Virus record (IMG/VR): IMGVR_UViG_3300026121_000008 | Coordinates: 1 to 64,000 of that record | DNA from: a virus | Lineage: Duplodnaviria; Caudoviricetes | Reading direction: 5' to 3' (one strand) | DNA length: 64,000 bases | Shown: positions 1 to 16,235 of the stretch, piece after piece | Layout: every line of letters starts with the position of its first letter | Position numbering within the stretch: position 1 is the stretch's first letter | Translations under genes and position numbers: made by a program | The notes under the pieces: generated by a model | What the model was told of the DNA's origin: nothing | Database searches by the model: none | The model's input: the letters and a program-made list of their open reading frames with translations, nothing else

Positions 1-11
1 CCCTCCCGAAG

Positions 12-3000
12 GTGGCCTATGACCCCGGTCAGGCACGAGATGCTCATGGGCGATGGACTGAGGCTGGACCACTGGTGGCCTACCACGGGACCGTGGAAAA
101 GCGGCTGGAGAGCATCCTTCGTGAAGGACTCACGAGAGCCCATGCGGGTGAGGCATGGAAAGCGTTCTCCCGGACAGATCGTGTGTATGTGACGACGAGT
201 GAACAGGATGGAAAAAATTGGGCCGAAAATTCAAAGCATCGGCATGAGGACATTGATGACTTGAGGCGAGAGGAACAACTCGCGACCGCTTCTCCCCTTG
301 ACATGCTTGCGGAGCGTCCGGAGCCTCGGGTGACGTCAGAAGTGGCGGTCCTGCTCACCGTGGAGATCCCAGCCTCCGAAGTAGGCAAGCTCGAAGAGGA
401 TCGCTATTTTCCGGGGGAAACAAAACGCACCTTTGATGGTGATATCAAACCGGAGTGGATTACCCGTGCTCAAGTACTCAAGGAAGGAGATCGAGTTGGG
501 GGTAATTGGGAGGATGTCCCTCTCCGGAAGAAAATCGCTAGAGACGGGACGACCATCTATATCGCGTTGTTGCTGAGTGACGACGAAGTCACCAAGTGGG
601 ACGAGCACCAACACCCCCGCGACAAAGAGGGTCAATTCACTGAAGCCGTGGCGGCAAAGGTCGCTGAGGCGGCAAAGGTGATCGCGGACGCCAAGACTGA
701 TGGCCGTCCGGTGTTGTTTCATTCAGGAGATGCCAGTATTGATGCCCATCTCGCCCAAGGTATCGAACCCCGCTTCGGGGGGTGGCTCGAAGAAGTGTTG
801 AGTGGCGCGACGGATGATGACGAGCTTGCGGATCAAATCCGTGAGCAAGACCCGGTCACGTTCTTTTCGACCGAGCCTGATTGGGTCGCCATGAAAGTGG
901 CGCGGGCGATGGGAAAGTTTGTGGGGGATGTCACGCTGGAGGACATCCGGACGCATGGGCAATTGAGCATCATTAGTGTCGCGGCCCGTGATCCGTCTGA
1001 ACGATTTACGGAAGCAGAGCAGGACGCCTTCACCGAGGAAGAGTGGAAACATCAAGAGCGTCTGACGGAGAAGGGTGCAGACCCGGATGATTTTCTCACC
1101 GTGGGCGGGAAGCACCACGAAGAGATCATTCCGCTGGGTGGCACGTCCCGAGGATTTGAGGAGATTCCGTTTGGCGTCGAGCCCAAGGACATCTTCTCGA
1201 AGAGCACTATTGTTCCAGATGTGACGTTGACCGGGGATGCACTGGTGGCGTTTCTGCAAATCCACTACCCCCATCTTCTAGCCCATGTGAAGAAGTGGGA
1301 TGAACAGAAACACCCCCGCGACAAAGAAGGGCAATTTGTAGAGGCGGCTGATACCGTTTTGACCAGTTCATATGATGGTTATCAGCACATGATCGAGATG
1401 AAGACACCGGACGGTCACCTTATCGGTCATGCGAAGCTCCGCATGACTTCTCGTGACTTGGCCGAGTACGACATTCTGCACATCGATCCAAAGTTCCGAG
1501 GCCATGGGTATGGAGAGCACCTTTATCGGGCCATCGCAGACAAAGCGAGAAGACTTGGCGCGAAAAGAATTCTGGGGGATGTAACGTCCGCAGGCGTATT
1601 ACGACTCGGCATTAAGGTGTTAGGGACACCGGAATTCATTGCCGATGCCATTGAGGAGTATACCCTTGAGCAGGCTCTGAAGAAATTGGAGCCACAGGCC
1701 CCCGAAAATGCCGAAGGTGTCATTGATACGGCCAACTATCTTGCTGTGCGCTGGCCGCTTCGGAAGCAAAAGTACGCTATCAAGTGGGACGAAGCTCGAC
1801 ATCCTAGAGACAAACAAGGCCAGTTCGCACACGGGGGTATCACCGAAGTAACCGGGGTGGATTGGGAATCCTTTTACTGGGGTAAAGATTTCAGAGAGCC
1901 TGACGATTACTACTACCACGTCACGTTAGCTCCACACGCTCAACGTATTGTGGAGAACCAAGAACTTACACCGGGTCGAGCGCAGTTTATGGGTCGAGCA
2001 GAACCAGCCGCCCATTCAAAAGGAAACGTCTTTCTGACGGATAGGAATGGAGTGTACTTTTGGGCCAGTCGTGTGCAGGACCATGCGATGGATCAGTACG
2101 ATGATCCCCCGAAGGTGGCTGTGGTTCGTATTCCAAAGCGTTTGGTCCCTGATGTCTCCCCTGACCCGGCAGGCACACGAGATGCGAACGCCCCCGCGTA
2201 TATTGTCAAGGGACCGTTGTCTTTGAAGTGGGATGAGCAAAAGCATCCCCGAGACAAGCAAGGCCAGTTCACCGAGTCCGGAGGGGATGTCGCGGCAGAA
2301 GAAGAAATCTGGCCCATCGAGGGGGGAGGACCAGAACGAAAGAAGTGGAACAAGCTCCTCGTGGTGGCGAAAGACGCCGATGCCGTAATAGAGGGTCTGG
2401 TCAATGCCCAAACGCAGTTGTATCTGCGTCTGAAAGAGAAGTATCAGGTTCACACCCCGGAGGGGTTAGCGGCGTATCTCAAAGATCCGGAATGGGTCGA
2501 GGCGGATGCCAAACGTGAGGCGGCTCAGAAAGTCGTGGATGCTGCCTATGAGGTACTGAATAAGCAAGCCCCCGCCATGCGGAAAGAAGTCGTGACGAAC
2601 CTCGCCGCAGATGTGGCGAAGCGACTCGGCATCGATCCCTCTGTCATCCATGTCGTAGACAAAGAGCCGCGTGAATTCTCCGTGGGAGACAAACAGTTCA
2701 AGGAAGGTGGGCACTACGATCCGCGAGATCTTCAAATTGAAATCAATGCCCGGAATATCGGCTACAACAATGCACCGGGCGTCAAAGGCGTGGTCGCCCA
2801 TGAAATCTCTCACCTCATCTACCATCAGTTGAAGAAAACGGCAGAACAGGAGTTCACTCGATACACGGATCTTGCTATCACCCCGGACGGACAAGGGTAT
2901 ACCGATTGGTACAAGGAACGGTTTGAAACCGTACCGGGATTGTTGTACCAGAAGCAGTTGAAATCTGAATATCGAGCCGAGTTTGCGAAGATGTTCCCCG

Positions 3001-3404
3001 CTTCCGCTGTCATCGCGGGACTCAGTGATGGAGATTTCTTCAAGGGCCTGTCCAATTTCATGATCAAAGAGAACGGGCACAGTGCCTATGCCAAGTCGTA
3101 TTGGGACGAGCAGGCGGTCAAGAACCGAGGGTATGAGCCTGCGGTGAACGAGACCATTGCTGAAGTGACCCGATTTTTAAGCTATCCCAAGTCGTGGCAA
3201 GAGGACCATCAGCCCGACATGCACTCCCCGTGGGTCATTCTGACCGGGAAGATGCACGCATGGTATCGGAAGAAGCAGGATCAGGCGCAGGCCGAGTTAG
3301 ACGCGAATTTGAAGGCCCTCAAAGAGCACCAGCGACAAGAGGCCATTCAAATGGAATTGGAAGCGGAACAAGAACGCCGCGCCCGTCGAGAGCACCACCC
3401 ATGA
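12..3404 (+). CDS. Polyvalent head-cargo polyprotein 1: ART / ART-like / GNAT / ART / zincin modules, each behind a tag (may extend 5' of the window)
   Basis: Five tags (YDPGQARDAHGRWT, then 4x KWDExxHPRDKxGQF). Modules: YHGT..ILREGL..VYVT..DIKPEWI (Tpt1/KptA-like ART); LFHSG..FFST (ART-like, tentative); IDPKFRGHGYG (GNAT motif A); YYHVT..VFLT..VVRIP (ART); HEISH..SAYA..NETIAE (zincin). The frame is open to the window edge. Confidence 0.8.
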   Translation: MAYDPGQARDAHGRWTEAGPLVAYHGTVEKRLESILREGLTRAHAGEAWKAFSRTDRVYVTTSEQDGKNWAENSKHRHEDIDDLRREEQLATASPLDMLAERPEPRVTSEVAVLLTVEIPASEVGKLEEDRYFPGETKRTFDGDIKPEWITRAQVLKEGDRVGGNWEDVPLRKKIARDGTTIYIALLLSDDEVTKWDEHQHPRDKEGQFTEAVAAKVAEAAKVIADAKTDGRPVLFHSGDASIDAHLAQGIEPRFGGWLEEVLSGATDDDELADQIREQDPVTFFSTEPDWVAMKVARAMGKFVGDVTLEDIRTHGQLSIISVAARDPSERFTEAEQDAFTEEEWKHQERLTEKGADPDDFLTVGGKHHEEIIPLGGTSRGFEEIPFGVEPKDIFSKSTIVPDVTLTGDALVAFLQIHYPHLLAHVKKWDEQKHPRDKEGQFVEAADTVLTSSYDGYQHMIEMKTPDGHLIGHAKLRMTSRDLAEYDILHIDPKFRGHGYGEHLYRAIADKARRLGAKRILGDVTSAGVLRLGIKVLGTPEFIADAIEEYTLEQALKKLEPQAPENAEGVIDTANYLAVRWPLRKQKYAIKWDEARHPRDKQGQFAHGGITEVTGVDWESFYWGKDFREPDDYYYHVTLAPHAQRIVENQELTPGRAQFMGRAEPAAHSKGNVFLTDRNGVYFWASRVQDHAMDQYDDPPKVAVVRIPKRLVPDVSPDPAGTRDANAPAYIVKGPLSLKWDEQKHPRDKQGQFTESGGDVAAEEEIWPIEGGGPERKKWNKLLVVAKDADAVIEGLVNAQTQLYLRLKEKYQVHTPEGLAAYLKDPEWVEADAKREAAQKVVDAAYEVLNKQAPAMRKEVVTNLAADVAKRLGIDPSVIHVVDKEPREFSVGDKQFKEGGHYDPRDLQIEINARNIGYNNAPGVKGVVAHEISHLIYHQLKKTAEQEFTRYTDLAITPDGQGYTDWYKERFETVPGLLYQKQLKSEYRAEFAKMFPASAVIAGLSDGDFFKGLSNFMIKENGHSAYAKSYWDEQAVKNRGYEPAVNETIAEVTRFLSYPKSWQEDHQPDMHSPWVILTGKMHAWYRKKQDQAQAELDANLKALKEHQRQEAIQMELEAEQERRARREHHP

Positions 3405-4750
3405 TCCCCACCCCTATCACCATCGAGGGCAAGACCGGCACCGTCGTCTATCTCGATGCCCTCTGGCACCCGGTCCCTCCTGAACGTGCCACCATGGCCC
3501 GTGTCCTTTTCGATGATGGGAGTTCGGCCTTCTTTTTTACGGAGCCCGACACTGTTGAGAAGTTCGACCCCGCCCAACCCCGTGATAAAGACGGGAAGTG
3601 GACACAAGGGTTGCATCTCCAAGGGCCGAAGAGCAAAAAACCAGAACGACTTTCGACGGCTGAGTTTGAGGCGCGGTATCCGGAAGAAAAACGGTTGTAT
3701 CTGGGGGTGACGTCTTCTGCTGCTGCAGAACGCGCCCGTGAAGGGGGCGGGAAAATTGGGGGCACGGGCATGCACATGCAGCAATCGGTGGTCCATGCCC
3801 AAGGTAATGCCCAGCGTGAAGCACGCGATCAAGGGAACGTGCTGCGGTTTGCCATCAAACCGGAAGCGCGGGTGGTGCGATTGCCCCATCGATTGTGGGA
3901 TGCCAGTCCAGAACGGATTGACAAGTGGGTCACAGAGCAGCATGCCGATATTGTGAACGTCGATGACGTGGAATTCATCGTGAAGAATCCAGCGATGGTA
4001 GCGGTCGATTCGCATGACTATACGCTTAGTGAAGCGGTCGTGCTGGATTACGAGCGGAGCGGCTACATACTCGATGAGTATGAAGCAGAGAAAGCGGCCC
4101 TCGCGGCATTACGACAGGCCACGATCCCGTCTTCGGTGCCGTCCCAGACAGACCTTCCTCCCTACCAACAGGCCCGAGCCCTGCTACAGGACGCTGTCGG
4201 GAAAGAGATTCCGGTGGGAGTGGATGATCATCCTGTCGCAATTCGCGCCGCACAGGAGATCGCAGAGGTACTGAAGGAGATGCAGGCCAAGGGCTATACG
4301 ATGCCTCGTGAGATCGAAGTCCGGGCGCAACAGACCCAGATGCCTGCGGGCGAAGCCACGCACGACATTTTGCAGATCAAAGTGCCGGATAACCTTCCCG
4401 ATGATGTCACCCTCGATCAGGCGACTCTGGCGGTCTACGGGGAGGTGGATTATGCCGGGGTTCCCAATTATGTCCCTCGTACGTTCAAGGAGATCGTGGT
4501 TCACGAGATGGGGCATATCAACCGCCGTCCCGCAAAGGTGAGAGAAACACCAGCGGCAGCGAAGGAATTTGCACGGGAACTAAAAGCGATTCACGAGATG
4601 CCCACTGCCGCGAAAGACGTGAGCCGCTATGCGGCACAGAATGCCGAAGAATTTGTGGCGGAGGTCTTCACCAAACTCTATCGCGGGGATACGGTCTCCC
4701 CCAAAGTCATGCGGGTGTATCGTGGGTTGCGGGGAGGAGTCCTCCGATGA
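3401..4750 (+). CDS. Head-cargo protein 2: short N-domain, tag, ART-like module, zincin metallopeptidase
   Basis: ATGA overlap with the upstream stop favours a start at 3401 over 3194. Tag EKFDPAQPRDKDGKWT; RLYLG..GTGMH..EFIVKNP (ART-like, tentative); HEMGH..SRYAAQNAEEFVAE (zincin). Confidence 0.75.
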   Translation: MIPTPITIEGKTGTVVYLDALWHPVPPERATMARVLFDDGSSAFFFTEPDTVEKFDPAQPRDKDGKWTQGLHLQGPKSKKPERLSTAEFEARYPEEKRLYLGVTSSAAAERAREGGGKIGGTGMHMQQSVVHAQGNAQREARDQGNVLRFAIKPEARVVRLPHRLWDASPERIDKWVTEQHADIVNVDDVEFIVKNPAMVAVDSHDYTLSEAVVLDYERSGYILDEYEAEKAALAALRQATIPSSVPSQTDLPPYQQARALLQDAVGKEIPVGVDDHPVAIRAAQEIAEVLKEMQAKGYTMPREIEVRAQQTQMPAGEATHDILQIKVPDNLPDDVTLDQATLAVYGEVDYAGVPNYVPRTFKEIVVHEMGHINRRPAKVRETPAAAKEFARELKAIHEMPTAAKDVSRYAAQNAEEFVAEVFTKLYRGDTVSPKVMRVYRGLRGGVLR

Positions 4751-7700
4751 GTCTTCCTCCATGGCCTGATTGGACGGCTGAGCAGTGGCGGGCTGTCGTG
4801 CAGCCAATTGCACGAGAAGGTGTCGGAGGTCTCACCCGGAAGTTCGATGCCACCCAACACCCCCGAGGAGAGGATGGCCGCTTCATTGAAGCTACCCAAC
4901 CCAGAATCTTCAGTCGAATGACTGATGTTGGCTCCTACATGAGTTGGGGCGAGAAGAAGTGGGGATGGCGTGCGACGGCTGAGGACATACGTTTTGGCGC
5001 GAAGTTGGGAGAAGTCACGGGGAGGCTCCTGACGGGTGAACCCATCCCCCGTGACCAGATCCCCGCGAAGCTCTATCACGTCACCACCAATGCTCCTGCC
5101 GTTGAATCCTCTGGTGTCCTCCTTGGCCTACTGGAAGATGGCGGGATGGGCGGAGGACAAGCCCAAGGCGTGTCGTTTACGTCCAGCCCGGAGGATGCCG
5201 AGGTTATTCAGCGGGAGTTGAAGCGGGCGGTTCATATTGCCCGAGGGGATGTGCAAGGCATCGAAGACTTTGAACGCTATGCCAGAGAAGATGAGCAACG
5301 GGCAGGGCTCCCGAAGGGATCACTGGATGCGGCGTTGACGGAAGTGCGACGAACGTGGGACGTCCAGAAGGATCGTCACAAGCAATATGAGGCCCCTGAC
5401 GAGCAGGAGCGGGTTCGACGCAGTAATCTGGGCGATCTCCTGAACCTCTACCTGTATGGCCGGGAAACGGCCTCAGAGAGAGTGACGGGATCACGAGTGG
5501 AGATTCTCAAGAATCCCATCCTGTTTGGCCAACAGAAACATCTGGCCAAGATCAACCCCGACCACATCCAGATTCTGGAAGCTGATGCCGAGGACATCCC
5601 CGCTGATGCCCTCGTCACCACCGGCTCCGATAAGTTCCTCCATGAGGTCCGAGTCTACGCGGACGTCCCGAGACGCCGGAAAAAGGCCGCATCTGAGACC
5701 GCCCATCCTACCCAGCCCCTTCCCAAAGTTGCCAAAGACGCCAATGCCTTTGATGAGACAAAGCACCCACGAGCCCCCGGAGGCACGGAAGAAGGCGGGC
5801 AATTCACGGAGACGGGACGGTCTGGTGTCCCGACCTCTGACCCTACGCTGGCGAAGCAGGCTAAAGACGGGATTGTGTACGTTGAACGGCTTCTCCCAGA
5901 GGCGGTAAAAACCGCCCGCTATGAAAATGTGTCGGGGACATGGGGGTACTTGACGAAAGAGACGCAGGAGGCCGTTGAACTCGCTTACAAAGAAAAGATT
6001 TACGAGAGCACGTCTCAGCACTTGTTCACCGCAGATTTTGATAATGATCTCAAGATTGCCTTAGCGAGGAAAGAACGAGACGCGATTCGGCAGGAAGGGT
6101 TGAAGCGGGTGAGAGCCCTCTACCCAGACGTCGATCCGACGACGGTGATGCTGAGTCCTGATGCCCCGAAAGAAGCGTCGGGCTACGTGCCGTTAGGGCA
6201 GAGTGAATTACGTCATACCGATGGGTCGCCGCTCAGTGCCAAAGAGTATCGAACTCTTGATCAAGCGTGGTTTCAATCGTTTAAGGATGCACGGGATGAC
6301 GTCTTTAGCCAATTCATGGCGTCCGAGGAATATGCGGCATTACGGGAGCAGCAGGTCAGAAAAACTGTTCACCAACAATGGCAGAATCTCCCCCCTGAAA
6401 CCAAGTACCAGAAGGCCATTGAGATGCGGCAACGAGGAGAGTTGTCGGGGGAGGGGCTTGAAATCCTTGCGAAGGAACCTGAGCACTGGACCACAGGGGT
6501 GGAGCAGGGTGACCACACGGACGAAGACTACGCCCGGACCCATGCGATAGCCCTGAAACTCACCGAACTCCGGATGGACGAGATCCGGAAAGAGCGGGAT
6601 ATTGGCGAGCCGAAGTCGGTGTATTCGATTCGGCCTGCTGCTGATCCAGACGATGGGTTCATAATCACAGACAGTAGTGATGGCACGACGGTGGCGACGG
6701 CGTTGACGCAGGAGGAAGCCTTCCAGCAAATGACGGAATGGCAGGAGCAGGAAAACACACTCCTCTCCTCCAAAGCGGTGATTGAGTCCGTCTGGGAGTC
6801 ATGGAAACGTAAATCCAGTGAGGGCTTGGGCCTGTCTCTGCAACTCGCCGCTGCCCGAGAATTGGGTGGGCACCATCGGATGTCGCCGGAGGAAGTTCAA
6901 GAGGCAGAAAAGCAGGCGAGGGAGCACTTCGGCCAGTATGGCATGGCTACCCTCCAAGCCTATGTGCGTGCCCAATGGGAAGTGACCCAGATGGTCATGC
7001 AGAAGGCGGGGGAGAAAGAGGTCTCCGTCTATCGTGGGCTGATGCTGAGCGGAGATCAGGTCAAGACGACCACGCATGAAGTCGTGGATGAGTCAGGAGC
7101 CTCACTCCGGCCCACGAATGTGAGAACGATCACGAAAACTCCTGCTGACGCAGATTATGTCGCGGGGGAGTACGTGAGTTTTGAGTATCGAGGACATGAG
7201 TTAACAGAGCCGAAAGTCCGCACGACGCCGTTTACATGGGAGGAAGTGGACGCCGCGACGAGAGAAAAAGTGGCCGAGGGGTGGGCTACGATGATCGGCA
7301 CAAAAGAAACCACCCCTGATCAAATCAAAGCGGCGTATGCCGTCCTGAATGATTGGAGCAAACTGCAACTCCTGCAGACGTTGATTACCCGAGGCATTAT
7401 TCCTCTCTATCCGTATGAGAGTGAAGAAGCCACGGTCCAGCGGGGGGTGAAACGGTATTTGGAAGAGATAGAGTACCAGAGCACCTTCACCAAACTTCCC
7501 AATCTCTCGTTGAAGCGAGCGGGTGCCCAATCCACCACCGGCACCCCCGCTATCGCTAATGACTGGGGAGGGGTCGGGGATCTTCCCCCCAACCCCGTGC
7601 GCGTGGTCATCCGGGTACAGGCCCCACCCACATCGGTGCTGTCCCTTCCCGTCTATGGGCAAAATGCTCAGAGTGAGCACGAGACCGTGCTCCTCGGTAC

Positions 7701-9744
7701 CCCCGACAAGTGGCTGTGGGATGCGTGGGAAAAAACCGCCCCGGAGTTCAGCAACGTCACCATCACTACCCACAAGGAGACCGCCACCAAGGCGGAGACC
7801 CTCCCCCTCCTCATCGATCTCCAAGCCGAGGATCGTGGGAAGCCCCACTGGATGACCGGGGTGAATTGGGCGACGGTGACGAAGTTCGATGAAGCTAAAC
7901 ACCCCAGAGAATCCGCCGGGTCTGCAGAAGGAGGTCAGTTCACCGAGACCGGCCATGTGGGAGAAGCCACCCCTGATCCGGTCCTCGCCAAGCAAGCGGA
8001 GGCAGGCATCGCCGCCGTAGAGAAGTTGCTGCCCACGGCAATCAGCACAGCCGACTATGAGACCACGGCTCCTGTGTCCACATGGAACGACGTCCAAGAC
8101 GATCTCCAAGACAAGGTGCGGCAGAAGTGGGTAGAAAATGCGTATGACGATGTTGATGTAGACACGTCCGAGGTGGATCAAGAAGTCACACGAGAACTAG
8201 AAAAGGATAACCAAGAAGTCCTCGATGACGCGATGACCGCCTTAGAAGAGGGCTTAGAAGAGAAATTCCCAGACACCGCTTCCCAACTCCCGTTGGAAAC
8301 TCCGCTCGAACTCTTCCGCCGGGTGGATATGGACACAGTGGACTATGGGGAGGGAGAGCACGAAGACGACAAGACTGTGAAGCTGGATCTGGATGCCCTA
8401 CGCTTCACGTCCGGGGAAGAATTGACAGACGACGAGAAACGCATTGTCCAAACGCAGTGGGACAGTGCGTATGGAAAGGCATTTGATAACCACCTGTCTA
8501 AGGTATTTGAGTCGGATTCTTACTACGAGCGGATCGATAAAGTGCGGGATGACGAGATTTTGCAGCAGTGGGATGATCTCTCTGACCAAGATAAATTCCA
8601 GTTTTTGGCGACTCATTACCCCGATGACATGGCCGATTTCACGAGTAGCGTGGAAGGCGGCGAACCCACTACATGGACGACCGGCGTCGAGTCTGGAGAT
8701 CACACCGATGAAGACTACGCCCGGACTCATGCCATCGCCCTTCGACTCACCGAGATGCGGACGGACGAGATCCGGAAGGAACGGGGACTGCTAGAGTCGA
8801 AAGATCGTCCAAAGTTTACCATTCGACCGACTGCGGCTGATGATCCACCCGGAGGGTTTACGATTGTCGGTGAAGACGGGACTATTGTTGCCCACACGAA
8901 TACGGAAGAAGAAGCCAAGTCCGTGGGGTTCCAGTGGGCCACGAATATGTCCAAGCGGCCCCCTTTGGCCACTTCTACTCTCATTATAGAAGTATGGGAC
9001 CAGTGGAAGACGTCCTCCAGTCGTGGCCTCTCCCTCTCGATGCAATTGGCTGCAGCAAAAGAACTGGGTGGGCATCATCGTCTGTCTCCGGAAGAAGTGC
9101 AGGAGGCTGAGAAAATTGCGAGGCCCTACGGCGGCATCGAAACGCTCCAAGCCTACGTGAGAGCCCAGTGGGAAGTGACCCAGACCATCATGAAGAAAGC
9201 CGGAGAGAGTAAAATCAAGGTTTACCGAGGGCTGATGCTACCGGGGGATGACATCGAGATGACGAAACACGAGGAAGTGGAAGTCCCCTCTCCTTATCAG
9301 GGGGCTCAAGCTCGTTCGTATTCCAAACTTCCTGAATTGTCGCTGAAGCGGGCCGGAGCCCAATCCACCACGGGGACGCCCTCCGTGGCGAATGACTGGA
9401 ATGGGGTGGGGAATCTGCCCCCCAAACCAGTACGAGTAGTGATCCGCATCGAAGCTCCTTCGACGTCCGTCTTATCGTTGCCGGTCTACGGGCAAAATGA
9501 ACAAGCGGAGCATGAGACGGTGCTGCTGGGTACGAACGATAAGTGGTTGTGGGACGTGTGGCTCCGGAAGGCTCCTGAGTTTTCCAGTGAGCCCATCGCC
9601 ACTTCCGCCAAGAAGGCCGAGCCGCCTCCCAAGAAGACGCCGCTCGTCATCGATCTCCAAGAGGCCGACCGAGACAAGCCCCACTGGATGAGTCAGGTCG
9701 AGTGGGAGAAGCAGAAGGCGCAGGACAAGGACACCAAGAAATGA
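4747..9744 (+). CDS. Head-cargo polyprotein 3: one H-type ART plus two paralogous R-S-E ADP-ribosyltransferase modules
   Basis: Tags at 4840, 5749 and 7882. Module 1: LYHVTT..VSFT..HEVRV. Modules 2 and 3 each: VYRG..QSTT..QxEHE (R-S-ExE signature). Confidence 0.8.
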   Translation: MSLPPWPDWTAEQWRAVVQPIAREGVGGLTRKFDATQHPRGEDGRFIEATQPRIFSRMTDVGSYMSWGEKKWGWRATAEDIRFGAKLGEVTGRLLTGEPIPRDQIPAKLYHVTTNAPAVESSGVLLGLLEDGGMGGGQAQGVSFTSSPEDAEVIQRELKRAVHIARGDVQGIEDFERYAREDEQRAGLPKGSLDAALTEVRRTWDVQKDRHKQYEAPDEQERVRRSNLGDLLNLYLYGRETASERVTGSRVEILKNPILFGQQKHLAKINPDHIQILEADAEDIPADALVTTGSDKFLHEVRVYADVPRRRKKAASETAHPTQPLPKVAKDANAFDETKHPRAPGGTEEGGQFTETGRSGVPTSDPTLAKQAKDGIVYVERLLPEAVKTARYENVSGTWGYLTKETQEAVELAYKEKIYESTSQHLFTADFDNDLKIALARKERDAIRQEGLKRVRALYPDVDPTTVMLSPDAPKEASGYVPLGQSELRHTDGSPLSAKEYRTLDQAWFQSFKDARDDVFSQFMASEEYAALREQQVRKTVHQQWQNLPPETKYQKAIEMRQRGELSGEGLEILAKEPEHWTTGVEQGDHTDEDYARTHAIALKLTELRMDEIRKERDIGEPKSVYSIRPAADPDDGFIITDSSDGTTVATALTQEEAFQQMTEWQEQENTLLSSKAVIESVWESWKRKSSEGLGLSLQLAAARELGGHHRMSPEEVQEAEKQAREHFGQYGMATLQAYVRAQWEVTQMVMQKAGEKEVSVYRGLMLSGDQVKTTTHEVVDESGASLRPTNVRTITKTPADADYVAGEYVSFEYRGHELTEPKVRTTPFTWEEVDAATREKVAEGWATMIGTKETTPDQIKAAYAVLNDWSKLQLLQTLITRGIIPLYPYESEEATVQRGVKRYLEEIEYQSTFTKLPNLSLKRAGAQSTTGTPAIANDWGGVGDLPPNPVRVVIRVQAPPTSVLSLPVYGQNAQSEHETVLLGTPDKWLWDAWEKTAPEFSNVTITTHKETATKAETLPLLIDLQAEDRGKPHWMTGVNWATVTKFDEAKHPRESAGSAEGGQFTETGHVGEATPDPVLAKQAEAGIAAVEKLLPTAISTADYETTAPVSTWNDVQDDLQDKVRQKWVENAYDDVDVDTSEVDQEVTRELEKDNQEVLDDAMTALEEGLEEKFPDTASQLPLETPLELFRRVDMDTVDYGEGEHEDDKTVKLDLDALRFTSGEELTDDEKRIVQTQWDSAYGKAFDNHLSKVFESDSYYERIDKVRDDEILQQWDDLSDQDKFQFLATHYPDDMADFTSSVEGGEPTTWTTGVESGDHTDEDYARTHAIALRLTEMRTDEIRKERGLLESKDRPKFTIRPTAADDPPGGFTIVGEDGTIVAHTNTEEEAKSVGFQWATNMSKRPPLATSTLIIEVWDQWKTSSSRGLSLSMQLAAAKELGGHHRLSPEEVQEAEKIARPYGGIETLQAYVRAQWEVTQTIMKKAGESKIKVYRGLMLPGDDIEMTKHEEVEVPSPYQGAQARSYSKLPELSLKRAGAQSTTGTPSVANDWNGVGNLPPKPVRVVIRIEAPSTSVLSLPVYGQNEQAEHETVLLGTNDKWLWDVWLRKAPEFSSEPIATSAKKAEPPPKKTPLVIDLQEADRDKPHWMSQVEWEKQKAQDKDTKK

Positions 9745-11396
9745 CCCGAGACATGCGGTCCCTCGTGGCGGAGATCCGGGTGTTGCTCAGGAAGCGGCAC
9801 GTCCCGCCCCACCACGCCATCCTCAAGTATGACCGCAACCAGCCCCGTGGAGCCGCAGGCACCCCGCAGGGCGGGCGTTGGGTCAAGGGGGTCAGTCAGG
9901 GGACGGAGGGGGAAACGAAACGTCTCCAATCGTCTTACCTTCAGCGTAATCAGGCGTCTTACGCGGACATCATGGACGCCCCGATGGGCGAGGGCTTTCA
10001 CAACCGCCCCCGAGGCGTGAACATCCCCGAGCCACCCCCAGATGACCCGGCAGAGAAGATCCGGAACGTCCTCTCCACTGGATCGATCTCCGATAGCGAA
10101 CCCATGGGGGATCAGGGGGCCAATGTCTCCAAGCTGGTCACCCTCGAAGATGGCACCCAAGCGGTCTTCAAGCCTGAAGTCGGGGAGACGTGGCGGACCA
10201 CGTTCTCCAACCGTGATATTCCCAAGTACATCACCAATCGAGAGTTCTCCCTCGCAGAGCGCGAAGCCACCGCCTATGAGGTCTCCGAAGCCTTGGGGGT
10301 GCATCTCGTCCCGGTCACCGTCCTGCGGGAGACCGTCGAAGGCGTCGAGGGGCTGGATGACGACGATGAAAGCGGGTTCGACTCGGATGAGTTGAAAGAC
10401 CAGTATAACGAGTACCGGGACAAACGCCAAGAAGAAGTCATCGATGAAGTCGGAGAAGAGATGTACAACCTCTTCGATGACCATTTGAATGATCTCGACA
10501 AGCGAGTCGATGAGGTGCAAGAGATTTGGGACAAGGTGGCAGAGGAGTACCCCAATCGGGGAGCCGCCCGTGAACATCCTGTGCTGCCGATGGGGTCTGT
10601 GTCCCCGTTTGAACGGAAGGTGCCAGACCCGGTTGATCCGTTGGAACTGTTGAAAGAAGCGGACGTCGATCCGGTCTCCTCGTTGTTACCACAGGAAAGA
10701 AAAGACGTCGAAGCCGCGATTCGGAAGCGATTTGAAGAAGGAGCCGAAGAACTGGGTGCGTTTGATCGGGATGAGGCGCGGGATCACGAGACATATGGGT
10801 ATGACAAGTGGCTCGAAGCGCACCAAGATACCGAAGTCAAGCTCTATGACAAGAAGATCAAGTCCTTCGACTCGTGGGCACAAAGTCAGGGCTACGACAT
10901 CCGAGGTCATGGTCGCGGCCCCAAGAACCCAGATGCCCCGCATCCCAAAGGCGGATCGTTCCAGCACTTCCAAGAGGGTGCTGACAGCTACGGGGACGTG
11001 GATGAGGAGACTGGCCCTCAACTCGCCGTGCTGGACTATGTGCTGGGGACCATGGATCGGCACCACAGCAACCTGATGTTCAAGAACGGACGCCCTATTG
11101 CCATCGACAACGGCTACAGTTTCCCCGGATCGCCGGGGGAGGATGACTTCAAGTTCCGGTCGAATGAAGTGGGGACATGGTTGCGGAGGAGCAGTGACAC
11201 CAACGTACCGGAGGCTCTTCGTGCCACCCTCCACAAGACCATCATGGAGGCGGATTGGCAGGGACTGGTGGACCGCCACCCCAGCATGAGCGATAAGGAA
11301 CGGAAAGCGTTACTGGGCCGGGTGGACAACATGAAACGGGCCTTGCGAACTCGTGAAGGACTGGGCCAGTTGTGGCGGAGTCTCGACCGGATATGA
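9741..11396 (+). CDS. Head-cargo HipA/PI3-PI4-kinase-like protein with an acidic insertion
   Basis: ATGA overlap start. Tag LKYDRNQPRGAAGTPQGGRW; AVFKP, EREATAY, GSFQHF, DYVLGTMDRHHSN, AIDNG kinase motifs. Confidence 0.8.
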   Translation: MTRDMRSLVAEIRVLLRKRHVPPHHAILKYDRNQPRGAAGTPQGGRWVKGVSQGTEGETKRLQSSYLQRNQASYADIMDAPMGEGFHNRPRGVNIPEPPPDDPAEKIRNVLSTGSISDSEPMGDQGANVSKLVTLEDGTQAVFKPEVGETWRTTFSNRDIPKYITNREFSLAEREATAYEVSEALGVHLVPVTVLRETVEGVEGLDDDDESGFDSDELKDQYNEYRDKRQEEVIDEVGEEMYNLFDDHLNDLDKRVDEVQEIWDKVAEEYPNRGAAREHPVLPMGSVSPFERKVPDPVDPLELLKEADVDPVSSLLPQERKDVEAAIRKRFEEGAEELGAFDRDEARDHETYGYDKWLEAHQDTEVKLYDKKIKSFDSWAQSQGYDIRGHGRGPKNPDAPHPKGGSFQHFQEGADSYGDVDEETGPQLAVLDYVLGTMDRHHSNLMFKNGRPIAIDNGYSFPGSPGEDDFKFRSNEVGTWLRRSSDTNVPEALRATLHKTIMEADWQGLVDRHPSMSDKERKALLGRVDNMKRALRTREGLGQLWRSLDRI

Positions 11397-11397
11397 G

Positions 11398-11426
11398 TTG
11401 ACAAATCACACAGTGTGTACCATACT
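11398..11426 (+). promoter_or_regulatory. Sigma70-like promoter (TTGACA-17-CATACT)
   Basis: Consensus -35, 17-bp spacer containing the palindrome CACACAGTGTG, and an ATG 5 nt after the -10 (possibly a leaderless mRNA). Confidence 0.7.
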
Positions 11427-11431
11427 GTAGG

Positions 11432-11656
11432 ATGAGGTGTCAGGTGTATGTAGAATTCTGGACGAATACCAAGGGGAAGATGCGGGTGATCGCGGTCATT
11501 CGGGCAGACGGGCAGATCGAGGAGAAAGAACCCCTCCCGCCCCGGATCAGAGAGGACATTGAAGATCAGCGACGACGGGTGCCGGGAAAGAGATTTCTGG
11601 AGTCCCTCCCGGCGGAGTTCTCTGGTTCCTACTACTGGGCCATCCTGAAGGACTAA
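11432..11656 (+). CDS. Small hypothetical protein, candidate kinase immunity/antitoxin
   Basis: 74-aa ORF filling the gap after the kinase gene; has its own promoter and no cargo tag. Confidence 0.6.
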   Translation: MRCQVYVEFWTNTKGKMRVIAVIRADGQIEEKEPLPPRIREDIEDQRRRVPGKRFLESLPAEFSGSYYWAILKD

Positions 11657-11658
11657 CC

Positions 11659-12579
11659 GTGCTGACGATCCTCCCTAAGCCGGTGCAACCAGTTGCACCC
11701 TACCTGTCCGTCCTGAAGTTCAACCCGGACCAGCCCCGCCAACCCGCCGGGTCGGAGCATGGGGGAGAGTTTGCGAAAGAAACGAGCAATCCGACCCATG
11801 CACGACGGGACGAGGTGGAGCAGCTAGGAAAGGACATCTTCGAGGAGGCGCATCGTATCGCTCCCGGTCATGACCGCTCCACGACAGGGGGGTACTCGAT
11901 GTACCATCGGGCGGACGTGAAAGCCCACATCCAAGACGATTTGACGGCCCGCTTGAAGGGACATCCCGCTTTCGCGGATATGGATGAGGAGACGCTCTTG
12001 ACGTGGGTGCAGGGGAAGATCGACTTGTGGGCGGAGACCTCTGGAGACAGTGACCTCGATGCGGCGGTCATGCAGTTGGCGGTCCAACAGGAATTTGGGT
12101 TGACCGGTGCCGCCACAGACCATCTCCAAAAGAACTTGGGATTTCCCCTGACCCTGTCTGGAAAAGAGGCGGACCAGCTTCGCGCCTTCGTGCGGGCGGA
12201 GTACGAGGCCACACAGGCGTGGTTCAAGAAGCGAGGCATCACCCATGTGACGGCTCTCCGAGGCATGGATGATGATCCACGGGATAAGCGATTGGGGTTT
12301 GGGTATGAGACCATCACGATGCAACCCGCGTCGTCATGGGCGGTTGATGTCCAAACGGCGTTCGCGTTCACCACGAATAAATCGAACCCCAAGATTCTCA
12401 CGACCCGTGTCCCGGTAGAACAGGTCTTGAGTACGTGTCTGACCGGGCGGGGCTGTTTGGCAGAAAAAGAAATCCTGTTACTGGGGAAACCGCAACGCGC
12501 CCATATTTTTGGGGTGAGCGGGGACGATTTCTCTCCCGACAGTTCGGATACCAAACGAATCCTGCATTCACTCGAATGA
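11659..12579 (+). CDS. Head-cargo R-S-E ADP-ribosyltransferase
   Basis: Tag LKFNPDQPRQPAGSEHGGEF; TALRG..ASSW..AEKE. QLRAFVRAEYEATQ matches TLQAYVRAQWEVTQ of polyprotein 3. Confidence 0.75.
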   Translation: MLTILPKPVQPVAPYLSVLKFNPDQPRQPAGSEHGGEFAKETSNPTHARRDEVEQLGKDIFEEAHRIAPGHDRSTTGGYSMYHRADVKAHIQDDLTARLKGHPAFADMDEETLLTWVQGKIDLWAETSGDSDLDAAVMQLAVQQEFGLTGAATDHLQKNLGFPLTLSGKEADQLRAFVRAEYEATQAWFKKRGITHVTALRGMDDDPRDKRLGFGYETITMQPASSWAVDVQTAFAFTTNKSNPKILTTRVPVEQVLSTCLTGRGCLAEKEILLLGKPQRAHIFGVSGDDFSPDSSDTKRILHSLE

Positions 12580-15500
12580 ACATTGACGCCACGCTCACCA
12601 ACGCCGACTGGCCCAAGCGCACCCCCGATAAGTTCTCGGATCTGGGCGTCATCGTCCAGAAGTTCCAAGAGACCCAGCACCCCCGTGATACGCGAGGCCG
12701 CTTCACCGAGTCGGCCTCCATCACGGTGACAGGACGCCAGATCGAGGTGGTCAAGCCCGAACGGGCCATTCGTGCCGGGGATAAGCTCGTCCCCCTGAAT
12801 GTCCTCGCCTTCGATCAGGAGTTCCAGAAAGAGCCGGGATTCTATCTGGGAGTGGGGGGACAGGGCGGCATCGGCACCCGCTATACCCGCTTCGGAGAGT
12901 TTCTCTCCCAGCATGACAGCATCGAAGCCGCCGAGGTGTCGGTCCACTCGGATGGCCGGATTGGCTTCACCAACGGACGGCACCGGTATGCGTGGCTCCG
13001 GGATCAGGGGTTGACGTCCATCCCGGTGGCCATGACACCTGAGTCCGTCCGGAATGCCAAGAAATTTGGCTATCTTGCCGCCGTCAAGCTGGCATGGGAT
13101 GAGAGTGATCACCCCCGTGACAAAGAGGGGCAGTTCACGACCTTCTACCATGGCACGCTGCAGGAGCAATTGGACTCCATCAAAGAGCAGGGCTTGCAAA
13201 CTAACCGGTCAGGGCTGGCATGGCCGGGTCTGAGTCAACCGGGGACGATCTATCTGGGACGCACGAAAGAAGCGGCTATGGGGTGGGCGGAGTCCACGAC
13301 GCTCCGGCTGGAGTGGAAGTTTGAGAATCCCACAGCCGTGGTGCTGGAAGTGCGAGTGCCCGATGACGTGTTGGCCAAGTCCCAGCGAACCGCCGAGCCT
13401 GAAGGCAACCTGCGGGTCTTCCAAGATATTCCACCCGAGTGGATTGTGGGGGTGACTGTTGGGCGAAGCCATGATCAAATTCTTGGGGTGACGAGAGCCC
13501 GGATGCGACGGGAAGAAGCCAAGCATATTGTGCCTCCTGTCATTACCAAATCTGAGACGTTCTATGTAGGGCTGGTGATTGAAGGAGGGCGAGTTCAGAA
13601 ATGGGACGAATCCCAGCATCCGCGTGATGAAAAAGGCCAGTTCAGTGACGCCGGTAGGAGTGTCGGGGACTACGTTCACTCCTCAGAGCCGCTGACCACA
13701 GAAGAGGAAGATCGGTTCACGGAGTTCGAGGAGGCATGGGCCGGAGGCGTGGCGGACTTCGGGGATGCGATGGCCGCGACCTACGTCCAGCAACTCCCGA
13801 AATACAACGCCTACCGCACGAAGCTCGTGGCAGAGTTGGAGCAGAATTACGGCCCCAAGATCACCGTCTACCGGGCCGTCAGTCAGGAGGCCCTCGAAGA
13901 GATGGAAGCCGGAACATGGCAAGGCCCCATTGCCACGACCACCAATCCTGAACTGGCCAAGAAGTGGGTGAACTTCGCCCGGAACAAGAACACGACCCTC
14001 CATATCCTCAAGACCACCATCAGCCCCAAGCTAGCGGTGATCCGGGGCAAGGCCGAGGAGAGTGAGATCGTCATCGATGGGGATTGGGTCAGCTTCCATG
14101 AGTGGGAGCACGTCGGCACGGCGAAGAAACGTCAGTGGGAGGAATCCAAACATCCTCGTCAAGGCGGGGGTTCTTCCCATGGCGGCGAGTTCGTGGAGGC
14201 TCTCCACAGCCCCGGTGATGCCCTCTTCTCCCTCCTGAACAACGAGAACGCCACCATTGATCGAGGGGATGTCCGGACCCTCTTGGAGAAGGCGGCAGAG
14301 CTAGAGGACACAGAAGACCCGAACCTCCTGCACTTGCATGTGGATGGCATGGACGTCTTCGACAAGACGGGACTGGGGATCAAGCGGGAACACATGCCCC
14401 AGATCCCGAGAGCCCATCGCGCCCAGTTCATGAAGGAGATGAAAGACATTGGGGTGGAGATTGTCAAGGAGTGGGTAGACCCGCTCACCCTCAAACCTAC
14501 CCAAGATGAGATCTCCGCCCGCAATGCGGGGCAGAAGATGCGGGAGTACGAGAAGAAGAAGGACAAAGCCTTCCCACCCCTCCTCGTCTCGAAGGAAGGC
14601 CGTCTCCTCGATGGCCACCACCACTGGGCCATGATGGCAGGACTGGCGGTGGATGCGCCCGGTGTGAAAGTCCCGATCTACCGGCTCCGGATCAGCACGA
14701 AGCGGGCACTGGCCCTGATGCACGCCTACGACAAGAAATACAAGATAGAGCGGAAGGCACTGGGCCAGAAGTGGGATGAGTCCAGACATTCCCGCGATCA
14801 AGAGGGACAATTCACTGAGTCTGGTGCCCCACCCAAGCCAAGCAAGAGGGGGTATCATGACATTACGCCAGAGAGGCATAAGCGGTATCACGTCTACGAT
14901 GAGAACGATAACCTTGTCGATAAGACGTATGATTCTGATGAAGCCCAACGCTGGGCCGATCAGCGTAATGGCTATGTGGAGGATATAGGAGAGGAAAAAC
15001 CGAAGAAAAAAACTGCAAAGAAAGCCGATCCAGCCACTGGTCGTTACGTCACCCCCTTCGTGTCCTTCGAGAAGCAGGGAGATGAATCTCTCCGCATGAT
15101 CGCTAGCCTGAACTCCAGCCGCTTGGCCACATGGGGGTTCACGGCAGAAGCCGAAGTACTCGGCATGGCCCGGTACCGCTTGACGGCAGTCCTCGATGGA
15201 CGCACCAGCAATTTCTGTCGGATGGTGGATGGCAAAGTCTTCGAGGTCCAAGATGCCCGCCGGAAGGTGATCGAAGTCTTGAATGTCCAGAATCCGGAAG
15301 ACTTGAGAACAGTACAGCCGTGGCCCAAGCAGGACCGGGCGTCTATGGCGGAGTTTAGGCAGATGGACCCAGAGGAGTTGACGCAACTGGGCCTGCATAT
15401 CCCCCCTTACCATCCCCACTGTCGGACGCTGCTCCGGCATGTGCCGTCGAGTGTGGGAGAGCCCACCGAGCCTGTTCCGACGATTCCAGTAGAGGCCGAG

Positions 15501-16235
15501 GTGTTCCAGCCCGTGACGGCGGACGACCTGAGAGAACTCGGCGTCGAGGCGACTCCAGAGGATGTTGCCCTGTGGAACGCCCACATCGGGATGACCCCGG
15601 CGGAACTCCTCTCGAAGCTCTCCGGGATGCCACCCCAAGAGGTGATGACCAAGGGCAAAGGGGTCGGAGCCAATCCCATCAGGTTCGATGAGGCGGGCAA
15701 CATCGGGTTCAACGTCCGGGGAGCCACACCACAAGGGCTGGAGTTCAAGCTCAATGCTCTCCTCGATCCGTTCACCAGCACCTACTATCTGACTCAAGCG
15801 GACCTGATTGCAGGCAACCCCAAGGCGGAACTGGCCTTCCTGAAGAACCTGTTTGGCTCCCTGATTGAGATGGGGCTGAAGTCGTCTGCGACGTCCGTGG
15901 CCGTAGGTGTGGCCGGGAGCACGATCCCCTACGCCAAGATGGGGTTCCTCCCGGACGAGTTGGAGTGGGACAGCCTCCGCACGTATGCCTTGAATGAGAT
16001 CGACACGGGTGCCCTCAAACCCATCCTCGACTCGCTGGCTCCTGCGGACCAGCAGTTGGTGATTCACCTCCTCCAAGACCGATCTGTGGGCGCAATGTCG
16101 GCACTGGTGGAGTTGCCGTTCACGTATGAAGGGAAGACCATTGGGGAGTGGTTGTTCGGAGAGGCGACTGGAACGTGGGCCTTGGACTTGACGGATGATT
16201 TGATGGTGGCACAGGCCAAGGAGTATCTGACATGA
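12576..16235 (+). CDS. MuF (SPP1 gp7-like) head-morphogenesis polyprotein: ParB-N / ART / ART / ParB-N / small domain / MuF / GNAT-like C-terminus
   Basis: ATGA overlap start at 12576; five tags. TNGRHR and LDGHHH (ParB-N); FYHGT..DIPPEWI and VYRA..ATTT..EESE (ARTs); AVLDGRTSNFCR..PPYHPHCR (MuF); YAKMGF (GNAT-like, tentative). Confidence 0.85.
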   Translation: MNIDATLTNADWPKRTPDKFSDLGVIVQKFQETQHPRDTRGRFTESASITVTGRQIEVVKPERAIRAGDKLVPLNVLAFDQEFQKEPGFYLGVGGQGGIGTRYTRFGEFLSQHDSIEAAEVSVHSDGRIGFTNGRHRYAWLRDQGLTSIPVAMTPESVRNAKKFGYLAAVKLAWDESDHPRDKEGQFTTFYHGTLQEQLDSIKEQGLQTNRSGLAWPGLSQPGTIYLGRTKEAAMGWAESTTLRLEWKFENPTAVVLEVRVPDDVLAKSQRTAEPEGNLRVFQDIPPEWIVGVTVGRSHDQILGVTRARMRREEAKHIVPPVITKSETFYVGLVIEGGRVQKWDESQHPRDEKGQFSDAGRSVGDYVHSSEPLTTEEEDRFTEFEEAWAGGVADFGDAMAATYVQQLPKYNAYRTKLVAELEQNYGPKITVYRAVSQEALEEMEAGTWQGPIATTTNPELAKKWVNFARNKNTTLHILKTTISPKLAVIRGKAEESEIVIDGDWVSFHEWEHVGTAKKRQWEESKHPRQGGGSSHGGEFVEALHSPGDALFSLLNNENATIDRGDVRTLLEKAAELEDTEDPNLLHLHVDGMDVFDKTGLGIKREHMPQIPRAHRAQFMKEMKDIGVEIVKEWVDPLTLKPTQDEISARNAGQKMREYEKKKDKAFPPLLVSKEGRLLDGHHHWAMMAGLAVDAPGVKVPIYRLRISTKRALALMHAYDKKYKIERKALGQKWDESRHSRDQEGQFTESGAPPKPSKRGYHDITPERHKRYHVYDENDNLVDKTYDSDEAQRWADQRNGYVEDIGEEKPKKKTAKKADPATGRYVTPFVSFEKQGDESLRMIASLNSSRLATWGFTAEAEVLGMARYRLTAVLDGRTSNFCRMVDGKVFEVQDARRKVIEVLNVQNPEDLRTVQPWPKQDRASMAEFRQMDPEELTQLGLHIPPYHPHCRTLLRHVPSSVGEPTEPVPTIPVEAEVFQPVTADDLRELGVEATPEDVALWNAHIGMTPAELLSKLSGMPPQEVMTKGKGVGANPIRFDEAGNIGFNVRGATPQGLEFKLNALLDPFTSTYYLTQADLIAGNPKAELAFLKNLFGSLIEMGLKSSATSVAVGVAGSTIPYAKMGFLPDELEWDSLRTYALNEIDTGALKPILDSLAPADQQLVIHLLQDRSVGAMSALVELPFTYEGKTIGEWLFGEATGTWALDLTDDLMVAQAKEYLT

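Follow-up and report, generated by a model that had tools for sequence, protein, structure and literature searches.

Why are several of the enzymes encoded in the head module of a tailed phage followed by similar short peptides? The question arises in the window analysed here, the whole 64,000-nucleotide stretch formed by positions 1 to 64,000 of the IMG/VR virus record IMGVR_UViG_3300026121_000008 (Caudoviricetes). Its plus-strand region 3-16235, in which all the window coordinates given below lie, holds six large genes and one gene of 74 codons with ATGA overlaps at the gene junctions, and the products are chains of enzyme modules in which a repeated tag, K[WF]DExxHPRDxxGQF, precedes each module. 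The initial annotation drew attention to untagged pieces after the ADP-ribosyltransferases (ARTs) and the zincins of these polyproteins, and proposed that they hold the enzymes inactive in the producing cell and are cut off at maturation. Comparative sequence data identify the peptide that trails the R-S-E ARTs as a conserved, ART-family-specific element, and the best single reading of it is an immunity-like inhibitor, to which we give about an even chance.

Three R-S-E ARTs, of the Alt/VIP2/C3-like kind, were recognised, two in polyprotein 3 and one in polyprotein 5. The family has R, S-T-S and E/Q-x-E in canonical order, an order found in ART 1 and ART 2 as VYRG, (Q)STT and EHE; in ART 3 the S-T-S is a degenerate SS. 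In a multiple alignment of the family (A1), conservation reaches at least 90% at R85, S131, E179 and E181. ART 1 (6778-7752), assigned from its motifs, its homologs and alignment A1, begins with N-terminal helices and carries VYRG at 7027-7038, STT at 7528-7542 and EHE, its ExE motif, at 7675-7689, with the core ending in APEF (7738-7752). A variable linker that includes T-K-A-E (7753-7800) leads to the trailer LPLLIDLQAEDRGKPHWM (7801-7854), which is continued by TGVNWAT; the whole trailer segment (7801-7875; profile E value 7.6e-10) runs up to the next tag at 7876. ART 2 (8974-9603; residues 1-210 of the structural model described below) has its R motif at 9220-9231, STT at 9361-9375, the ExE motif EHE at 9508-9522 and APEF at 9571-9585. 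Its flexible linker with K-K-A-E (9604-9636) is followed by the trailer TPLVIDLQEADRDKPHWM (9637-9690), and the trailer segment (9637-9741; profile E value 7e-10) closes with a short charged C-terminal helix and the stop codon. In both, the peptide, L[LV]IDLQ..DR.KPHWM, comes after the last core strand (W.WDAW), a conserved AP.F segment and the variable linker; we call it the type-A trailer. The initial annotation was right that these R-S-E paralogs end with similar short peptides. Between R and STT, ART 1 has an insert of about 130 residues (7039-7527) that is absent from ART 2, and relatives have inserts of variable length there. Pfam gave nothing for the R-S-E ART modules.

The two ART units of polyprotein 3 are clear paralogs, and the similarity of their trailers could therefore be a by-product, without function, of a tandem duplication of tag plus ART. 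Homologs speak strongly against this. In eight of eight IMG/VR relatives, at 42-50% identity, the trailer is kept almost letter for letter while the linkers differ. A HMMER search of 1.84 billion representatives returned 349 hits; among the best 150 of these 349, which comprise 127 ART domains, a cis trailer with the consensus hVIDL-x(1-17)-[HNY]W[LM], commonly in the form PHW[LM], could be recognised 19-49 residues past the core in 47 of the 127, and about ten more carry degenerate copies. A loose form of the pattern, which has a background rate of 0.0019 per 45-residue window, matched 50 times in 155,000 residues of homologs, 47 times within 130 residues after an ART core and three times elsewhere. 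Across 45 trailer-bearing sequences the mean pairwise identity is 0.45 in the core, 0.17 in the linker columns and 0.50 in the trailer. Since the trailer is as conserved as the core while the linker has diverged, the peptide is under selection and is not a by-product of internal duplication. Its persistence down to about 35-40% ART identity, on dozens of unrelated contigs and in three genetic formats, contradicts the duplication account, to which we give almost no credence.

The comparison also revealed that the peptide need not be part of the ART protein. For two ART proteins that seemed to lack a trailer, the next, overlapping gene starts with the motif, in one case as MAKIEIDFGKIDRGPHWL followed by a tag and in the other as MASKITVNLDGPEGSPHWL at the head of a MuF protein. 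A scan of IMG/VR with the ART-core alignment yielded 55 loci with 27 scorable, non-redundant ART ends; the trailer is in cis at eight of them, at the N-terminus of the next open reading frame (ORF) at 18 and missing at one. When these 18 loci are pooled with the two just mentioned and with three alphaproteobacterial genomes, the motif opens the next ORF behind every one of the 23 ART genes that stop within 60 residues past the core (P ~1e-62 against the rate of 0.0019 per 45 residues). About 15 of the 23 next ORFs are micro-genes of 59-89 residues (12 in the IMG/VR loci, three in the bacterial genomes) that consist of a MAKKPEP-like start, the motif, often as hxVDILxMELxxxLPHWLDP, and a basic helix, and the genes that come after them encode MuF or the protease and capsid proteins. 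None of the micro-ORFs matches a Pfam family. On this evidence the partner peptide is found in three genetic formats, namely a cis tail joined through a flexible linker, a leader of the next gene and a micro-gene of 59-89 codons. ART 1 and ART 2 of the window exemplify the first format and ART 3 the second; the window has no separate trailer micro-ORF, the motif being fused either in cis or to the next gene. For annotation, the practical caution is that when an ART gene looks trailer-less, the ORF behind it usually begins with the partner. The three bacterial loci (L096-L098, from Bradyrhizobium elkanii WSM2783, Bradyrhizobium sp. BRP22 and a metagenome-assembled genome of the Xanthobacteraceae) carry the same ART family and a trailer micro-ORF of 60-73 residues followed by a head protease or capsid gene; these chromosomal loci are presumably prophages.

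The third ART of the window follows the same plan with a trailer of its own. Polyprotein 5 (11659-12579), which has one tag and then ART 3 with ALRG at 12253-12264, ASSW in place of S-T-S and the ExE motif EKE at 12463-12477, stops 30 residues past the ExE strand. Across the ATGA overlap, polyprotein 6 begins with MNIDATLTNADWPKRTPDKFSDL (12576-12644), the type-B trailer, so that in this phage the trailer of ART 3 lies on another polypeptide, the MuF-bearing one. The type-A profile does not detect its first part, MNIDATLTNADWPK (12576-12617), which the initial annotation had correctly described as following the third R-S-E ART at the start of the next gene. The split junction is conserved in four relatives, as MNIDAxLTNADWPKRTPDKF in two of them (L003, L004) and as VINLDERPENSDWIKR in the other two (L007, L008). 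Four longer ART 3 homologs (P0165, P0168, P0169, P0170) carry the peptide fused in cis about 30 residues past the core, as IVNIDAEVPNADWIQR, VINIDEDIANADWPKR, VIEVDAEIVNADWPKR and VLKIDADLRNADWTKR. Because the fused homologs have the same peptide in cis after the ART, MNIDATLTNADWPK can be assigned to ART 3 as its own trailer type. Both types are built alike, from a strand that contains [IV]D (hVIDL or NIDA), an acidic loop or spacer and an aromatic (H/D)W, and each ART subfamily is accordingly seen, at the level of sequence, to have its own, sister trailer type. Trailer type and enzyme type do go together, as a check proposed in the initial annotation had envisaged: the ART subfamilies carry their own types, and nearly all pattern matches fall behind ART cores.

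How the peptide is set off from the enzyme bears on whether it might be a processing or junction signal, recognised together with a preceding [KR]-A site by the prohead protease or the zincins and marking a cut in the polyprotein. A K-[AGSV]-[ED] triplet, represented in ART 1 by K-A-E, is aligned 5-8 residues before the trailer in the close clade, within a variable linker of low model confidence; in distant members it is R-A-A, and the description of the trailers as set off by lysine sites holds only in part. Split genes often start with M-A at the position of the [KR]-A site. Finally, in the HMMER set the trailer tends to occur in proteins that extend beyond the ART (odds ratio 22, P 2e-12). 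We had taken this association to mean that the trailer marks internal ARTs, a proposal that was rejected when DNA-level checks found the trailer on the next ORF; the split genes explain it for the processing signal as well. Micro-ORF versions have nothing to be cut from, and the high-confidence docking described below would be unexpected for a purely linear signal, so that a processing signal is a very improbable account of the peptide. More generally, because the peptide usually sits on a different chain, cleavage is not a general release mechanism. The idea that trailers are cut off at maturation therefore fails as a rule, both for most relatives and for ART 3.

Where the trailer lies relative to the enzyme was modelled for ART 2. 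The AlphaFold2 model of ART 2 with its trailer, built from an alignment of 78 sequences, has a mean predicted local distance difference test score (pLDDT) of 91.8 and a predicted template modelling score of 0.88, and displays an ART fold with N-terminal helices. Foldseek found no significant match for it in the PDB. With VIA-align the 15 best matches were R-S-E ARTs without exception, among them C3bot2, iota-like toxin, VIP2, Certhrax and SpvB; the Z scores are modest and the list is coherent. The best match is the Vis toxin (4xzj; Z 5.3, root-mean-square deviation 5.0, 162 residues aligned). In the model the trailer forms a strand (residues 225-227) and a helical turn (228-232) at a pLDDT of 90-92, after a linker (residues 211-221) at a pLDDT of 59, and it is thus predicted to dock on the ART domain. 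Most structural alignments end at residues 198-208, and trailer-less homologs end 10-15 residues after the core segment W.WDAW..AP.F; since both stop before it, the trailer lies outside the canonical ART fold.

The same model invites the reading that the peptide is a non-inhibitory structural clasp, an added edge piece that would make the fold of this ART clade an obligate assembly of two parts and keep it stable or soluble. AlphaFold2 packs a short strand or bridge and a helical turn on the domain, the range aligned to the Vis toxin extends to residue 231, and the ARTs of the YHGT type, considered further below, combine core, variable loop and conserved strand within one fold. However, the six-strand ART core with the ordered AP.F..VP segment is complete without the trailer, and in most relatives the peptide is not on the ART chain, an arrangement that toxin partners typically show and fold elements seldom do. 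We therefore consider a clasp unlikely.

The company that the peptide keeps on other polypeptides suggests a further possibility, a packaging adaptor or tether that attaches the ART for capsid loading and ejection, either to whichever head protein comes next (MuF or tagged cargo) or, by its basic helix, to DNA. In its favour there are Rosetta-stone fusions, as trailer-MuF (L019), ART-trailer-MuF (P0019, P0023, P0168, P0169) and trailer-tag-cargo (L018 and polyprotein 6); a basic helix comes after the motif, and the ARTs of the micro-ORF loci have no tag in the roughly 500 residues visible. Against it, the downstream fusion partners are heterogeneous. A tether would make no sense in cis, where the trailer nonetheless equals the catalytic core in conservation, and the ARTs of the window already sit in multi-tag proteins; taken together, these points argue that the peptide functions on the enzyme itself, and an adaptor is, in our judgement, decidedly unlikely. 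The leader of polyprotein 4 (MTRDMRSLVAEIRVLLRKRH, 9741-9830), a basic helix kept in relatives, stands directly after the trailer and stop codon of ART 2. It resembles the basic helix (..IRxKNRxKWLAEQ..) that comes after the trailer motif in the micro-ORFs, and could be the partner peptide's other half, encoded separately at the start of the following gene.

An immunity-like inhibitor fits these observations in the following manner. The peptide would fold back onto its ART, or bind it, and the bound peptide would keep the ART harmless in the producing cell; release might come about through cutting of the linker in the prohead, or because the proteins unfold and separate during ejection. Immunity genes classically lie directly behind a toxin domain, overlap it with their start codon and encode a small binding partner, and it is this layout that leads to the inhibitor reading. 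From layout, conservation and predicted binding, an inhibitory role is plausible but unproven for all three R-S-E ARTs of the window. To that extent, the proposal that untagged pieces hold the enzymes inactive survives; for the YHGT ARTs and for the second zincin it finds no support.

Several observations weigh against inhibition. Docking is predicted on the ART domain, of which the NAD+ cleft is only one possible docking site. Two attempts to locate a docking site gave uninformative results: residue contrasts between trailer-plus and trailer-minus ARTs left a vague signal in the N-terminal helices and the 188-189 hairpin, and mutual information with average product correction over 85 ART-trailer pairs was dominated by clade signal. 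The sole hint of cleavage is the conserved [KR]-A in the flexible linker. The basic helix after the motif, present in the micro-proteins and in many cis trailers, and the frequent fusion of trailers to the N-termini of MuF or other cargo would look alike if the peptide were an adaptor. A profile built from the cis trailers detects 24 of 54 loci at E <= 0.01, the DIL..LPHWLDP forms being recognised by pattern and position. The micro-ORFs match nothing informative, and a search of the ESM Atlas with one of them gave only generic helical look-alikes. Finally, late-expressed cargo in a cell that is about to lyse may need no neutralising.

If the peptide is an inhibitor, this ART family would be inhibited by a short linear motif that is conserved and usable as micro-gene, leader or cis tail. 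Such a motif would explain how polyvalent cargo with several toxic enzymes is made without separate immunity genes, would let ARTs of this kind and their partners be found by a sequence signature, and would offer a simple pair in which to study the silencing, and then the arming, of virion cargo. A wider proposal, which we advance tentatively and hold to be somewhat doubtful, is that a minimal immunity peptide of about 20 residues might serve virion ARTs in all three formats, so that self-neutralised cargo is armed by capsid maturation or by unfolding during ejection, with the leader after the first zincin as a second example, for a protease.

The other ARTs of the window call for a different explanation. 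H-Y-E ART 1 (78-575) and H-Y-E ART 2 (13143-13580) have YHGT, I/VY and PEWI aligned in order on the ART fold, which places them in the H-Y-E clade, and they have weak Pfam matches to Tpt1/KptA and ART-PolyVal. In a tblastn search of INPHARED neither they nor the R-S-E type had a match. They end with TTIYIALLL (549-575) and ETFYVGLVI (13554-13580), respectively, and the initial annotation, with correct coordinates, had regarded these ends as inhibitors too. The model of H-Y-E ART 2 is of moderate confidence (pLDDT 71), with fold matches to LT-A (Z 6.7), pertussis S1 (Z 6.7) and KptA (Z 5.0). It predicts the trailing segment to be an 11-residue beta-strand (E156-166, pLDDT 74-77), with a tyrosine that at least 90% of relatives share, at identities as low as 31%. 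The strand is always in cis, whether a tag or a 2H phosphoesterase domain comes next; a shorter and more distant YHGT variant in L008 is without both loop and strand. The simplest reading of the model is that the segment is an edge strand of the subfamily's sheet, and a trailer that is predicted to be an integral strand of the fold is what the initial annotation itself had named as grounds for giving up the inhibitor idea. In three relatives (L009, L010, P0158) no tag separates the second YHGT ART from a directly adjoining 2H phosphoesterase (PF13563). The window has a tag and another module there (13581-13652), so that modules have been swapped at this joint.

For the zincins, the claim was that each is followed by an untagged N-terminal segment of the next, coupled gene. 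The segments at 3401-3559 and 4747-4839 are indeed there, and for the first of them the comparison goes further. Zincin 1, at the end of polyprotein 1 (module 2280-3404, HEISH at 2799-2813), has a weak SprT-like match and was aligned with its homologs (A4). Zincin 1 homologs (43-57% identity) were found at 14 non-redundant loci, and at every one of them the gene that begins at the stop codon opens with the same beta-rich segment of 48 residues, in the window MIPTPITIEGKTGTVVYLD..ATMARVLFDDGSSAFFF at the start of polyprotein 2 (3401-3544). The segment has the consensus M[IT]PEPITIxG[KR]xGTVVYLD..WHPVP..ATMA[KR]VxFDDG..AFF and is present whatever tag type or module comes next. Its conservation marks the zincin 1 trailer as a 48-residue N-terminal mini-domain of the next protein; at the 14 loci it is never fused in cis to the zincin, and synteny alone may explain the link, all the loci being from related phages. 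Zincin 2 (3560-4750, HEMGH at 4502-4516) has no homolog in 98 related loci, and neither have the first residues of polyprotein 3. Of the polyprotein 3 leader (4747-4839), the first 19 or so residues are not conserved and the last 10 or so correspond to the pre-tag linker of the relatives, in which the 48-residue leader heads the polyprotein 3 type of protein directly. Zincin 2 therefore looks like an insertion, and its supposed trailer like an unconserved leader. Because an untagged leader precedes the first tag in every gene of the cluster, such leaders are not specific to zincins.

The remaining features of the locus agree with its assignment as a tailed-phage head module whose genes are translationally coupled and encode polyvalent cargo proteins with a MuF domain at the end. 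The genes that bear the ARTs and zincins are those of polyprotein 1 (3-3404, 5' end open), polyprotein 2 (3401-4750), polyprotein 3 (4747-9744), polyprotein 5 and polyprotein 6 (12576-16235); the gene of polyprotein 4 (9741-11396) is the kinase gene. The HPR-type tag occurs in 15 copies plus one at the window edge. Pfam recognises GNAT, the weak SprT-like zincin, PI3/4-kinase-like, ParB/PFIN-like and MuF domains in the cargo proteins, with MuF at residues 839-952 of polyprotein 6, and the genes of the prohead protease and the major capsid protein lie just downstream of the MuF-ending cargo genes. With GNAT, the HEISH and HEMGH zincins, the kinase-like and ParB/PFIN-like domains, the ARTs, MuF and a late, head-gene context, the set has the composition of polyvalent proteins, and the polyproteins are presumably packaged in the head and then injected with the DNA (PMC9503650). 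Between the kinase gene and the gene of polyprotein 5, an untagged ORF of 74 residues (11432-11656) is found again at 31-63% identity in five relatives (L002, L003, L004, L007, L008); it matches no Pfam or PHROG family, and its conservation identifies it as a real gene. Some relatives have, between modules where the HPR-type tag would otherwise stand, a different conserved motif, GG(P/A)GSGNFGHAGRPGE(V/I)GGS, which is carried by L085, L092 and L094 at the N-termini of next genes and by P0021, P0027, P0029, P0035, P0041, P0048 and P0165. This suggests that the cargo polyproteins use two interchangeable junction or tag systems.

Small immunity genes beside phage head toxins have, to our knowledge, been treated as separate, fast-evolving globular proteins. 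Jamet et al. (2017, PMC5576092) report a small ORF after 89% of MuF toxin genes. Bsi, a small protein encoded beside the prophage MuF-ART Bxa, blocks this toxin and co-purifies with it, and a model puts Bsi in the active site of Bxa (PMC11699363). The system described here shares with Bxa-Bsi and the MuF immunity modules a head-morphogenesis locus, a virion-associated R-S-E ART and a small unannotated partner right after the toxin domain, which is a separate ORF in about 15 relatives and not in the window. It differs in that physical binding, shown for Bsi by co-purification and a model, is here predicted, and in that the partner is a motif of about 20-25 residues, not a globular protein, and can also be tethered in cis or lead the next cargo protein; the likeness to Bsi drawn here is one of layout. 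Unlike the MuF toxins, the R-S-E ARTs of the window are not C-terminal to MuF; they are internal polyvalent-protein modules in polyproteins 3 and 5, two of them with further sequence after them, although some relatives do have the order ART-trailer-MuF. Polyvalent proteins, as outlined by Iyer, Burroughs, Anand, de Souza and Aravind (2017, PMC5512222), combine ART, zincin-like, ParB-like, GNAT and kinase domains with MuF, are packaged in the head and are proposed to be processed into units by the zincin domains. The window is of the phage type in that scheme, whose model as outlined there is zincin autoproteolysis and not the release of an inhibitor; in the parts of that article covered by a keyword search, there is no 'HPR' or 'linker' term, no ART-specific trailing peptide and no partner peptide held in common with small ORFs.

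Two further ARTs offer partial parallels. The auto-inhibitory segment of pierisin-1 is reportedly removed by proteolysis. It comes after the ART domain in the chain (PDB 5H6N, Oda et al. 2017, as cited in PMC11281641), and 5h6n is among the structural matches of the ART 2 model, as a weak one (Z 2.7) with a range extending over the trailer region. The segment described here differs from that of pierisin-1 in being detachable and often on another polypeptide. For T4 Alt, we know of no partner peptide or trailing motif that has been described. This R-S-E ART of the Alt/VIP2 family is a head-packaged enzyme that enters the cell along with the injected DNA (PMC9503650). There is precedent for polyvalent proteins, for ARTs packaged in the head and for pairs of MuF toxin and immunity protein, one such pair having been validated; what is new is a short conserved motif as the partner of one large ART family, its occurrence in three interchangeable formats and the existence of sister trailers for sister ART subfamilies.

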